Source of the DNA: Escherichia phage 235Ecol030PP
Length of the DNA: 64,000 nt
Reading direction: 5' to 3' (one strand)
Sequence record: PP355091.1
Part shown: piece after piece, positions 2,429 through 7,266 of the stretch
How positions within the stretch are numbered: position 1 is the stretch's first letter
Layout of the letters: each line of letters starts with the position of its first letter
Translations under genes and position numbers: made by a program
Notes under the pieces: model-generated
Seen by the model: the letters and a program-made list of their open reading frames with translations, nothing else
Database searches by the model: none
Told to the model about the DNA's origin: nothing

Positions 2429-2458
2429 ATTATACCACATCCTTGTGGTAAAGTAAAC
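2429..2458 (-). promoter_or_regulatory. T4-type early promoter (GTTTAC -35, TGnTATAAT -10)
   Basis: minus strand GTTTAC-18nt-TATAAT with TGG extension. Confidence 0.7.
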
Positions 2459-4278
2459 TACTGGCTCATCCATTCTTTACGAAGGTCAGCATTATCTCCC
2501 ATGAGCATTTCAAAAAGCTCTTTCCAGTTCTCAGGAAGTTTAACAACATCATATACTGGGTTTTGAATCATCTCACGATATTCAGATTTTTCCAAAGAGC
2601 CAAGTCCCTTAATATAACGGATGCTATGTTTAGGTAGAGTATCTTTGGCACTCTCATATTCAGCGACTGTATAAAACCATTCTTGTTTTTTACCGACCTG
2701 AGCGATGATTACAGGAGTTTTGACAAAGCGAATTCGTCCTTGCTCAAACAATTCTGGCCAATTACTAAAAAATCCGAGCAGAGAAGGATAAATGCTTCCT
2801 AGACCATCATGGTCAGCATCAGTCATAATAGCGATATTATGATAATTCAAGTTTTCAGCTTTTTCACCAAGAACTAGACCAGTTATTGCGCAAATATCAA
2901 ACAGTTCTTTGTTTTTAAGCATATCTGCATAAGACATACCCCAACTGTTGAGAACTTTACCACGTAATGGATAACCACCGTGAAGTTCTTTATCACGAAC
3001 ATCAATAAGATATCCGATAGCCGAATCACCCTCAGTCAAGAAAAGAGTAGTGTCAGCATCTTTACCACAAAGATTCGCTTTAATATGTTTATGAACCTTA
3101 GCTTTAGAAGCCTTTTTAGCCGCTTTAGTTTCTGCTGCTTTTTCTGCCGCCAATTTACGAGCTAATGCTGCTTCAATAATCGGCATTAAAATTGCTTCAT
3201 TATTTAGAATAGCACGTGAAATCTTTTTAGCATCAAGTTGAATATGACTACGGATTTCACCAAATGGAGAAGTCAAACGCTCTTTAGTTTGAGAATCAAA
3301 TCGCATGTTTTTCATATCACGAACAAACATAACGATAGTCAAACATTCTTTGACACGCGCTTTAGTTACATCAATTTTGAATTTACGTTTGATTTGTGGA
3401 ATAAGGTCTTCACAAATATCATCCATAACACAGTCAATGTGATGGCCACCATTCTTAGTGTGAATGTTATTCACATAAGTTAATTGACGAAAACCATCCG
3501 GTGAACGACCAACCGCAATAGAACAATTTTCTTGTTCTTGAACGATAGCATGTTCATCATACTGTCGTGCATATTTCTTAAAATTGCCCTGAACCTTTTT
3601 ACCATTAAAGGTAAATTGAATATCAGGATAAACTACTGCAAGTGTCTGGAGACGATCCAGTGTAATGTCAAGATAAACTTGGGACAGCTCATTAGTTTCA
3701 AATGACATAAAATCTGGAATGAAAGTAACACGAGTTCCTTTCCATTTTCCAGGAATAGTTTCCCAGGATTTATTTTCCATGCCATTTGAACAACGAACTA
3801 CAATATTATTTTGACCATCGCCAGTTTCACCAACAAACATCACAGAAAAAATGTTTGTCAAACTAGAACCAACACCATTCATACCGCCAGTGACGCGTTC
3901 TTTATCATCACCGAAGTTACCACCTGCTTTTGGAATAGTCCATGCAGCAACAGGACCAGGAATTTCTTCACCGGTAGGTGTTTTAACCATCGCCTGTGGA
4001 ATACCACGACCGTTATCTTCAACTGTTACTTGATTGTTTTTAATAGTAACATTAATTTTATTTGCGAATTTAAACTTAGTACGAATACCTTCATCTACTG
4101 AGTTATCGATAATTTCATCAATAAGCTTAACAAGACCAGGTACATACTGAACACTTTCCCATTTACCAAACAGAAAGCGCTCATGCATTTCATTAGCAGA
4201 AGAGCCAATGTACATGCCGCTACGCTTTTTGATATGTTCAATATCGCTCAGAATTTTAATTTCATTCTTAATCATCAC
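2458..4278 (-). CDS. 39: DNA topoisomerase II large subunit (GyrB-like ATPase + Toprim), unsplit 606 aa
   Basis: KRSGMYIGS ATPase N-terminus, GHKL motifs, Toprim LTEGDSA and DxD (TDADHDG); continuous ORF, no internal stop or bypass gap. Confidence 0.9.
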   Translation of the reverse strand: MMIKNEIKILSDIEHIKKRSGMYIGSSANEMHERFLFGKWESVQYVPGLVKLIDEIIDNSVDEGIRTKFKFANKINVTIKNNQVTVEDNGRGIPQAMVKTPTGEEIPGPVAAWTIPKAGGNFGDDKERVTGGMNGVGSSLTNIFSVMFVGETGDGQNNIVVRCSNGMENKSWETIPGKWKGTRVTFIPDFMSFETNELSQVYLDITLDRLQTLAVVYPDIQFTFNGKKVQGNFKKYARQYDEHAIVQEQENCSIAVGRSPDGFRQLTYVNNIHTKNGGHHIDCVMDDICEDLIPQIKRKFKIDVTKARVKECLTIVMFVRDMKNMRFDSQTKERLTSPFGEIRSHIQLDAKKISRAILNNEAILMPIIEAALARKLAAEKAAETKAAKKASKAKVHKHIKANLCGKDADTTLFLTEGDSAIGYLIDVRDKELHGGYPLRGKVLNSWGMSYADMLKNKELFDICAITGLVLGEKAENLNYHNIAIMTDADHDGLGSIYPSLLGFFSNWPELFEQGRIRFVKTPVIIAQVGKKQEWFYTVAEYESAKDTLPKHSIRYIKGLGSLEKSEYREMIQNPVYDVVKLPENWKELFEMLMGDNADLRKEWMSQ

Positions 4279-5206: not shown

Positions 5207-5421
5207 TAATAAATTTCCTTCCAGTAAGTTGTGCCATCTTCAGTAATTTCACGAAATACACCATAAATTGGCTGTTTATCGCCGACTTTCTCATACACAT
5301 AAACAGAAGTCAAGTGAGTAAACTTGCTAGTATGTTCCTTTTGAACTACTACCAAATCTGGATCGAATAATACATCTTCAAATTCGTCATTAGTGCAGTT
5401 CTGAACAATTTTACGTTTCAT
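5206..5421 (-). CDS. hypothetical protein, 71 aa (size and position resemble T4 cef)
   Basis: SD GAGGAAA before ATG; early promoter-like element upstream at ~5539-5568. Confidence 0.55.
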
Positions 5422-5592
5422 TACAATTTCCTCATTAATTGAACATTGGAGCGATGCGTTTCAGAAGAGTATCAGCACCTTTAGCGAATTTCCATTTTAT
5501 TCTCCAAGTTGTTTTCTATATCAGTAGTTGATATTGATATAGTACCATAATCAACTACTGATGTATATAGTTTTATGAAAAAATTTTAAACT

Positions 5593-6090
5593 TTATGCAC
5601 AGCGAGCTTTGCTATAGTGTTTAATCCAACTTTCAGGAATGACTTTGTATGTTCCTAAAAATACCGCGTTGTACAGCTTAACACCATCTTCTACCCACTG
5701 ATCGGTAATGTATGCGCACATAGCACGAGTACGGTGTTTTTGAACAACCCCTTCCTCATCTTCAGTAAATTCAAACTCATAAGGAGCAATGAACTTGATA
5801 GCTTGACCAAGTTTCCACTTAAAGTCTACACCTACATGCGAAGTATCAATCGTTTCAATTCCTTTAGCGGGAACAGCTTTCAAAAACGCAGATTCAAGAA
5901 ATTTCGCGCGAACATAACCAAACTGAGGTTTAGACTTTCCATCTTTAGGAATGATACGCACTTTTACTTCAGAATCTTCATCTTTAACGCCGTGTTTAAG
6001 CTGAATGCTTACAATTTCGACCAATTTTCCTGCTGCTTTAGAACGGGATTTATCAGATACACGAGCAATTTCACCAATATTAATAATCAT
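5593..6090 (-). CDS. hypothetical protein, 165 aa (paralog of 6167..6706)
   Basis: ORF; C-terminal block TDQWVEDGVKLYNAVF shared with neighbour. Confidence 0.65.
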   Translation of the reverse strand: MIINIGEIARVSDKSRSKAAGKLVEIVSIQLKHGVKDEDSEVKVRIIPKDGKSKPQFGYVRAKFLESAFLKAVPAKGIETIDTSHVGVDFKWKLGQAIKFIAPYEFEFTEDEEGVVQKHRTRAMCAYITDQWVEDGVKLYNAVFLGTYKVIPESWIKHYSKARCA

Positions 6091-6166
6091 AGTTATCTCT
6101 CACTTGTTAAAAAGATTTTATACTCCACGGGACCATTATACTCTGGTCCCAAGAGTTTGTAAACTA

Positions 6167-6706
6167 TTAATTCAAAATAGCTACCACTGCACTACGAGGT
6201 ACTACGCTAAAATCACCTGCATGAACAACGTTCAGAAGTTCAACACCATCTTCAATCCATTGGTCTGTTACCCAACCACAGACCGAAATAAATGGAGTCT
6301 TGATAGCTACCGCATGAGTTAGAAGGTCAGTAGGATCGCATTCTTGGAAGAGAATAAGCTCTGCTTCAAAGACTATAGTTTTAATTACTTCATCATTATC
6401 TAAGCGATGTGCTCGAATCACATAAGCTTTATTCTTATCATGCCAATTACTTTTTGAAAAACTTTTAACCACAAACTCGCCTTCACCAAAAACACTGGTC
6501 AATGCTTTATAACCCAAATTTAGTTCAGTAGTTTTAATTTCAGTTTCAACCAGTTTGTAGGTTTTGCCAATTTCAATAGCGGTAGTCATAGTAGGTTCCT
6601 TAATTTCCAGTGGTTTAACAGGGCATACATAAGTGCTTACAACATCAAAATCAATCAGTTTAGCTACCGGATTTGGTATGTATTCAGGATTATAATTAAA
6701 TTTCAT
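6167..6706 (-). CDS. hypothetical protein, 179 aa (paralog of 5593..6090)
   Basis: ORF; C-terminal block TDQWIEDGVELLNVVH shared with neighbour. Confidence 0.65.
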   Translation of the reverse strand: MKFNYNPEYIPNPVAKLIDFDVVSTYVCPVKPLEIKEPTMTTAIEIGKTYKLVETEIKTTELNLGYKALTSVFGEGEFVVKSFSKSNWHDKNKAYVIRAHRLDNDEVIKTIVFEAELILFQECDPTDLLTHAVAIKTPFISVCGWVTDQWIEDGVELLNVVHAGDFSVVPRSAVVAILN

Positions 6707-6708
6707 AA

Positions 6709-7209
6709 TTATCTCATTTCAATAAAATCTACGAGTTCAGCATGGGATTTACGGAACATTACTTGGTGCCCGCCAATGATAACTTCATCTTCAGGAACTT
6801 CGTATACAGCGAGATAAAATCCTTTAGAAGATAATTCTTCCCGCTCTTCTCGTGTGAACCATCTCATCATATCATATTCGCTAGCGAAAGCAAAATGATA
6901 AAGAGCTATAAACCATCCTGGAATATGATATTCTACTCCAACATAATCTTTCTTGAACTTAGTATTAATTACTATATTAGCGTTTTTAACTAATAGTTTA
7001 TCTTCGTGTGGTAAAGGAATTCTTTTATTATTATCGCTATGATGCATAAAATTAGGTCTGTCATAACCTACGTGTAATAACCACTCTTCACTCCATGAAT
7101 CTATTATACTTCTATATGGCGTTATTTGAACACAAAGATTTCGACGTATTGTTATAGCATCTTCATAATTAAGAATACTAAAAGATGATTCAACACGATA
7201 AATTTTCAT
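6709..7209 (-). CDS. hypothetical protein, ~166 aa
   Basis: start trimmed to ATG preceded by SD GAGGA; the longer track ORF runs into the upstream promoter. Confidence 0.55.
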   Translation of the reverse strand: MKIYRVESSFSILNYEDAITIRRNLCVQITPYRSIIDSWSEEWLLHVGYDRPNFMHHSDNNKRIPLPHEDKLLVKNANIVINTKFKKDYVGVEYHIPGWFIALYHFAFASEYDMMRWFTREEREELSSKGFYLAVYEVPEDEVIIGGHQVMFRKSHAELVDFIEMR

Positions 7210-7234
7210 TTTATTATCCTCAGTAGCTATGGTG

Positions 7235-7266
7235 TTATAATACCACAACTAACCGAGGAAGTAAAC
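7235..7266 (-). promoter_or_regulatory. T4-type early promoter
   Basis: GTTTAC then ~18 nt then TATTAT on minus strand. Confidence 0.55.

Follow-up and report, generated by a model that had tools for sequence, protein, structure and literature searches.

The closest described systems are the early proteins MotB and MotB.1 of bacteriophage T4. T4 MotB binds DNA tightly and without sequence specificity, H-NS and StpA co-purify with it on DNA, and the H-NS footprint is altered; it is also toxic to E. coli and is reported to raise burst size two-fold (PMC6070864, PMC7827196). Deletion of T4 motB.1 gave no phenotype in laboratory conditions (PMC12152347). The N-terminus of MotB was assigned to the KOW fold from an HHpred result, and an OB-fold, cold-shock-like DNA-binding domain was proposed for its C-terminal domain (Son et al. 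2021, PMC7827196). For the head of MotB.1, an LSm-like fold was described, with GoF and Frd.2 as relatives (Kim et al. 2025, PMC12152347). Son et al. sorted 102 homologues into Categories 1-4, with the RB14 'RB32ORF010c' protein in their homologue table, and described MotB and MotB.1 as sharing a C-terminal domain and differing in their N-terminal domains, a duplication being possible. That motB and motB.1 share a C-terminal module is thus already published and is an ordinary finding, and a pair annotated as motB/motB.1 in hundreds of T-even genomes matters little in itself. Here, we analysed this pair in a stretch of 64,000 nucleotides, hereafter called the window. With a probability of about 0.85, motB and motB.1 are early paralogs that have only their last ~37 residues in common and that arose by tandem duplication and exchange of the head.

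The source region is that of a T4-like coliphage whose closest records are ~97% identical, and a 2.1-kb stretch around the pair has 96-97% identity to numerous Tequatrovirus genomes (among them Ec_O157kw, RB33 and RB32). The window is collinear with the early region of T4, with all genes on the minus strand. In rising coordinates, the order is gene 39, 39.1, 39.2, goF, cef, motB, motB.1, motB.2, dexA, two small ORFs and dda, and the order of transcription is dda, dexA, motB.2, motB.1, motB, cef, goF and 39. The two ORFs of the preliminary description, of 165 and 179 amino acids (aa) on the minus strand, exist exactly as described there, and the comparison that it had proposed with the T4 motB-region genes identified them at once as motB and motB.1. 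It had placed the pair downstream of cef; relative to transcription, the two genes are upstream of it. The pair and its parts are as follows.

5593 to 6090, minus strand: motB, modifier of transcription, nonspecific DNA-binding early protein (165 aa; Pfam PF17613, PHROG 1671)
5617 to 5727, minus strand: shared block in MotB, residues 122-158 (hhalign columns, BLASTP)
5887 to 6090, minus strand: N-terminal head of MotB, residues 1-68, predicted basic SH3-like (KOW-like) barrel (AF2 model, charge)
6122 to 6156, minus strand: stem-loop with a GGGACC...GGTCCC core, over the -10 hexamer and just past the stop codon of the 179-aa gene (RNA fold)
6135 to 6163, minus strand: early-promoter-like site TTTACA-17-TATAAT between the paralogs, upstream of motB (11/12 matches)
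6167 to 6706, minus strand: gene at the motB.1 position, 179 aa, of the RB14 'RB32ORF010c' type (PHROG 2333)
6179 to 6289, minus strand: shared block in the 179-aa protein, residues 140-176, acidic, pI 4.1 (hhalign, BLASTP)
6290 to 6337, minus strand: 'DPTDLL..AVxIxxPF' segment, residues 124-139, immediately before the block (sequence comparison)
6338 to 6589, minus strand: MotB.1-type head, residues 40-123, alpha/beta, starting at Met40 (PHROG 2333 mapping, pLDDT 73-82)
6590 to 6706, minus strand: N-terminal extension of 39 residues, predicted disordered, with a linear motif at residues 19-37 (pLDDT)

Gene 39, which encodes the large subunit of the topoisomerase, is a single unsplit ORF of 606 aa (window 2458-4278, minus strand). 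In T4, this gene is divided into 39 and 60, with mobA and 60.1 between them; the source of the window is therefore a T-even phage that lacks this insertion. At the other side of the pair, the 179-aa gene begins 2 nt past motB.2. The motB.2 ORF (window 6709-7248, minus strand) was called by the program from a TTG located 13 codons upstream of Met14. Met14 aligns with residue 1 of T4 MotB.2, with 92% identity from there, and the gene probably starts at this methionine, near 7209. In some records, motB.2 is named 'adenylribosylating enzyme' or 'transcriptional regulator'; it matched only PHROG 1106, of unknown function, and SRA below the threshold, which supports neither name.

The T4 reference has an identical motB.1-motB intergenic stretch, promoter-like site included, and motB would have its own promoter if this site is active. 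The stem-loop that overlaps the site has an RNA fold of -26 kcal/mol (z = -4.2). Beyond motB, ~30 nt past its stop codon, there is an imperfect inverted repeat of 23 nt with a 13-bp perfect core (window 5517-5565). It is located in the 171-nt gap between motB and cef, has an RNA fold of -23.6 kcal/mol (z = -4.7), and no T-run comes after it. In Ec_O157kw (L002 1736-2005) and in RB51 (L010 3700-3969), the motB-cef gap holds an annotated ORF of 270 nt, which the window lacks. In several of the closest records, the match to the window falls into two pieces, which span ~200 bp more.

The 165-aa protein is MotB. It matches the Pfam motB model PF17613 over the full length with an E-value of 2.8e-99 and a score of 330 bits (cut-off 25), residues 1-163 covering profile positions 1-160 of 162, and it matches PHROG 1671 with an E-value of 2.8e-76. 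T4 MotB (Patterson-West et al. 2018; Son et al. 2021), which is encoded at the same locus, is 91% identical to it over the full length. The substitutions are minor and are found at ~residues 103-122 and in the C-terminal tail, and the window protein is longer than the 162-aa T4 MotB by three residues. In the AF2 model, which has a mean pLDDT of 80, the head is a small barrel with five short strands at residues 8-67, residues 70-83 form a disordered linker, and residues 97-159 an all-beta C-terminal domain. The head has a pI of 9.75 and a net charge of +5. No match to Pfam KOW was found in MotB at E-values up to 10.

The 179-aa protein matches PHROG 2333 with an E-value of 1.2e-81, and its gene sits between motB.2 and motB, which is the position of motB.1 in T4. 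Its 197 homologues come from T4-like phages without exception. The ORF of RB14 named 'RB32ORF010c' is 100% identical to the 39-residue C-terminal query of the window protein, and the GenBank annotation of RB51 describes a gene as 'similar to motB and RB32ORF010c'. The intact MotB.1 of T4 (P39415), from the same locus, has 143 aa in re-sequenced T4, for instance in MT984581, and lacks the 39-residue N-terminal extension that carries DxDVxSMY in the window protein. When the window and T4 alleles are aligned, the 5' end is unalignable and the 3' end nearly identical, with a recombination-like boundary. The last 75 residues of the window protein, which include DPTDLL and the block, have 67% identity to intact T4 MotB.1; BLASTP of its head against the T4 MotB.1 head gave no alignment. 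Residues 40-123 of the window protein map to positions 40-127 of PHROG 2333, and residues 1-83 of T4 MotB.1 to positions 43-129. Since the two heads map to the same PHROG positions and the locus is that of motB.1, the 179-aa gene is a divergent motB.1 allele with an extra 39-residue extension. The whole-protein pI is 5.0 (acidic), versus 9.1 (basic) for MotB. The Pfam motB model also matches the 179-aa protein with 34 bits, above the gathering score, but only between residues 141-174 and profile positions 120-153. Because this match is partial and because hhalign, described below, is limited to 37 columns, the protein, judged by sequence, has a module in common with MotB, yet is no MotB orthologue.

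The AF2 model of the 179-aa protein is of moderate confidence, with a mean pLDDT of 65. Residues 1-41 are disordered in it (pLDDT below 50), residues 49-122 form an alpha/beta head, and β-strands follow at residues 132-135, 142-152, 155-162, 165-170 and 174-176. The N-terminal domain of T4 MotB.1 has a weak match to the GoF family phrog_622 (E 0.027), and hhalign of the 179-aa family with the GoF of the window found no sequence-level link. Met40 coincides with the start of the T4 MotB.1 protein, and an AAGGA lies 7 nt before its codon (window 6587-6601, minus strand). The methionine is kept at this position in relatives (IKEPTM, LEKQNM, IKEPKM), and in some annotations the protein has 140 aa (P0108). 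The 179-aa gene may also yield a shorter isoform that begins internally, at Met40.

The preliminary description had written out a C-terminal motif shared by the two proteins, and this motif matches the stretch that BLASTP aligns. Residues 123-154 of MotB align without gaps to residues 141-172 of the 179-aa protein, with 16/32 positions identical and 24/32 positive, and the E-value is 4e-11. Family alignments were made from database homologues, with 40 sequences for MotB (43-94% identity) and 21 for the 179-aa family. Comparison of both families by hhalign gave a probability of 98% and an E-value of 2.7e-13 over 37 columns only, in which MotB 122-158 corresponds to residues 140-176 of the 179-aa protein. 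The pairwise alignment proposed earlier as a check is thus significant. Outside the block, neither BLASTP nor hhalign detected homology between the two window proteins. Searching the whole 64-kb window with either block by tblastn returned two copies only, with a cross match of E ~2e-10; no third copy was found in the six-frame translation, where the next best E-value was above 0.3. The blocks of the window have a nucleotide identity of 55%, and of 31% at third codon positions. These positions are saturated, so the motB/motB.1 split is old, which agrees with the age given to the duplication in the preliminary description. Two subtypes of the block, KLYN and ELLN, stay separate among representatives of the family clustered at 50% identity. 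The net charge of the block is 0 in MotB and -4 in the 179-aa protein. Almost no variation is seen in the exposed hairpin of the block, T-D-Q-W-x-E-[DE]-G.

In both AF2 models, the block corresponds to the last four β-strands, and the register is offset by 18 residues, as the alignment predicts. For both proteins, the prediction is a small beta-barrel protein of two modules, in which the block would give the last four strands of the C-terminal barrel. A fold search of the PDB with both models returned the same weak set, namely the tandem Tudor domains of 53BP1/UHRF1, KOW6-KOW7 of Spt5, and eIF5A. These matches, with E-values from 7e-4 to 1e-1, TM-scores of 0.2-0.5 and identities of 7-17%, suggest two SH3-like barrels in tandem in both modelled proteins. 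As the scores are weak, no family can be assigned, and the likeness to tandem Tudor, Spt5 KOW6-KOW7 and eIF5A is one of fold only, with no sequence homology to the motB family and no membership implied. For the C-terminal half of MotB, the comparison with the OB-fold gave a weak match to eIF5A (OB C-domain, E 0.05-0.07), and tandem Tudor and KOW ranked higher. Sequence searches against solved structures found none for the MotB family. The 179-aa family matched one kinase (E 0.0014), which we judged spurious. Pfam searches with the separate halves of the proteins found motB only, plus a sub-threshold DUF4978.

The profile of the block had 33 matches among 1.84 billion representative proteins, ~27 of them credible. 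Six proteins with 4-7 short stretches (P0260-P0262, P0264, P0266 and P0267) were set aside as likely false positives; P0260 and P0264 are repeat or low-complexity proteins. The credible proteins are all small (43-251 aa) and without exception carry the block at the C-terminus. Among annotated phage genomes, 902 records contain it, at 1807 places in total (~two copies per genome), and by organism name and annotation these records are T4-like phages of enterobacteria. Mapping of motifs on the block proteins gave four architectures.

Architecture 1: KOW head, FKWKLG region and KLYN-type block, which is MotB
Architecture 2: KOW head, linear motif DxDVxSMY, DPTDLL and ELLN-type block
Architecture 3: linear motif, MotB.1-type head, DPTDLL and ELLN-type block, which is the 179-aa protein of the window
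Architecture 4: T4-type head, DPTDLL and ELLN-type block, which is T4 MotB.1

One relative of architecture 3 has the head twice (P0242), and P0246 is a block protein with an additional N-terminal domain. In the metagenomic protein P0258 (43 aa), the first ~16 residues of MotB.2 (MKIYRVESSFSILDYED) are fused to the second half of the block (GVELLNVVHAGDFSVVPRSAVVAILN); from its sequence, it looks like a deletion of most of motB.2 and motB.1. Related phages have one, two or three block genes at this locus, RB51 and RB69 having three tandem paralogs. Klebsiella phage PWKp16 (Marfavirus) and Kosakonia phage 305 (Kanagawavirus) have a single copy in the dexA-cef interval, and it is of architecture 2. 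The gene of these two phages lies at the same locus as the window pair and combines a MotB-like KOW head with the motif, DPTDLL and ELLN block of the 179-aa type; it is one gene, not two, and has neither a MotB.1-type head nor an FKWKLG segment. The whole of the PWKp16 protein can be aligned with the MotB profile (E 7e-18), and the C-terminal 60 residues of this protein share 75% identity with the 179-aa family (E 4e-31). These single-copy genes of Klebsiella and Kosakonia phages, which join a KOW head to a MotB.1 tail, are not mentioned in the available text of PMC7827196. The DPTDLL segment is common to them and to T4 MotB.1, and is missing from MotB.

The linear motif has the form D-x-D-[VI]-x-S-M-Y-(5-6)-P-[LI] and is located in the predicted-disordered segment of the window protein, at residues 19-37 (window 6596-6652, minus strand). 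The window form is DFDVVSTY..VKPLEIKE, and many of its columns are invariant across the 179-aa family. The motif abuts DPTDLL in the KOW-headed relatives; in the window protein, a head of 84 residues stands between them. Some MotB linkers carry a degenerate copy (HDGYVCESNDIRG) of the DGYVVDTDVASMY motif. The DxDVxSMY motif is not mentioned in the available text of PMC7827196 or of PMC12152347.

The preliminary description had read the pair as a tandem duplication in which the N-termini later diverged. Given the tandem arrays of one to three such genes at the locus, duplication is the natural origin, and this part holds; the divergence of the N-termini from one sequence is unsupported. The heads do differ, but they appear to be different domains, basic and KOW-like in one protein and acidic and MotB.1/LSm-like in the other, rather than diverged copies, and no significant N-terminal similarity was found between the 165-aa and 179-aa proteins. 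As some phages have one gene in which a MotB head is joined to a MotB.1 tail, replacement or insertion of a head after the duplication explains the N-terminal difference better. The ancestor would likely have been one gene that encoded, in this order, a KOW head, the DxDVxSMY motif, the DPTDLL strand and the block, an arrangement still present as the sole copy at the locus in the T4-like phages of Klebsiella and Kosakonia. This gene would then have been duplicated in tandem. The copy that became motB would have retained the basic KOW head, the segment before the block being remade into the FKWKLG hairpin region. In the copy that became motB.1, everything from the motif to the block would have been retained, DPTDLL strand included, and an acidic MotB.1-type (LSm-like) head would have come in place of the lost KOW head; in the motB.1 of the window, the new head lies between the motif and DPTDLL. 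All states of the locus, from one to three genes, may thus be derived from one KOW-motif-DPTDLL-block gene. The single-copy genes could instead be motB x motB.1 recombinants.

The confinement of the homology to 37 columns, and the presence of the block in at least four architectures as well as in P0242, P0246 and P0258, would also be expected if pure shuffling of modules had joined the block, as a portable C-terminal cassette, to unrelated genes on separate occasions, without whole-gene tandem duplication and with incidental adjacency. All copies are nevertheless found in one tandem array at one locus, dexA-cef, the single-copy protein matches MotB over its whole length, and some MotB linkers preserve the degenerate remnant of the motif; we consider such shuffling improbable. 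More of the data are accounted for by a local duplication with later replacement of the head. The shared block might also be the product of recent gene conversion or recombination between unrelated neighbours, as T-even genomes are highly mosaic and motB.1 itself has a recombination-like boundary between the window and T4 alleles. Recent conversion is hard to reconcile with the low nucleotide identity of the two window blocks, overall and at third codon positions, and with KLYN and ELLN subtypes that remain distinct across the cluster representatives. We rejected it because the third codon positions are saturated, and it is very improbable. Finally, a block of 32-37 residues is short enough to raise the question of chance or compositional similarity between unrelated proteins. 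The BLASTP, hhalign and tblastn scores given above refute this, the Pfam and PHROG models cross-match, and the best unrelated match in the six-frame translation of the window is not significant; the probability of chance is close to nil.

The DNA-binding surface of MotB would be formed by the basic head (net charge +5) together with the basic C-terminal tail, and not by the shared block. The block is acidic or neutral, and is therefore unlikely to be a DNA-binding surface; electrostatic binding of DNA by MotB.1 is unlikely as well. From its conservation and charge, the block may be a conserved structural or partner-docking module. Since this conserved module has a nearly invariant hairpin, the paralogs may present different heads, DNA-binding in one case versus RNA- or protein-binding in the other, on one C-terminal module. 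In a doubtful extension of this idea, which we hold somewhat less improbable than pure shuffling of modules, the DPTDLL strand and the block would form a portable Tudor/KOW-like barrel, whose nearly invariant acidic-aromatic hairpin, G-W-x-T-D-Q-W-x-E-[DE]-G, would dock one common partner. This partner may be, for example, a basic nucleoid or transcription protein of the host. The KOW head of MotB and the LSm-like head of MotB.1 may then be brought to the same target, or MotB and MotB.1 may pair with each other, and the disordered motif DxDVxSMY..P.P may be a second docking peptide. If true, this would turn an early-gene family of 'unknown function' into a modular adaptor system for host takeover.

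The T4 reference NC_000866.4 (L001) has one extra G (CAATGGATTgGAAGATGG) at 5298-5315, within the motB.1 block, at the place that corresponds to window 6240-6260. Because of this extra G, motB.1 is annotated there at 119 aa and '13.8 kDa' (P39415), with the end ...TDQWIGRWR, cut short within the block. The extra G is missing in five re-sequenced T4 records (MT984581, KJ477684, HM137666, OZ209023 and OL964735), each of which encodes the intact 143-aa MotB.1. In the functional study of MotB.1 (PMC12152347), the genes were synthesised by GenScript, the motB.1 amber construct is given in NC_000866.4 coordinates, and MotB.1 is described as a 13.8-kDa monomer. From these statements in the available text, the MotB.1 that was tested therefore appears to be a shortened form without most of the conserved module. 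In RB69 (NC_004928.1, L011 3877-4373), the '29-aa peptide' of Category 3 of Son et al. 2021 is the out-of-frame tail of motB.1. The RB69 reference reads ...RRPFRRSSEWMGN* and then has a separate ORF, LKTVVELLNVVHAGDFSVVPRSAVVNILN. RB69 motB.1 differs by two single extra bases from an intact frame like that of P0245, and the break is either a sequencing error or a pseudogene.

For work on the early genes of T4, two points may be of use besides the truncated motB.1 of the T4 reference. The single-copy genes of the Klebsiella and Kosakonia phages point to a duplication that was followed by replacement of the head. In addition, the detectable homology of the paralogs is limited to a terminal module: Son et al. 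(PMC7827196) described the whole 'OB-fold' C-terminal domain of MotB (residues 69-149) as shared with MotB.1, whereas the homology detected here comprises 37 residues.
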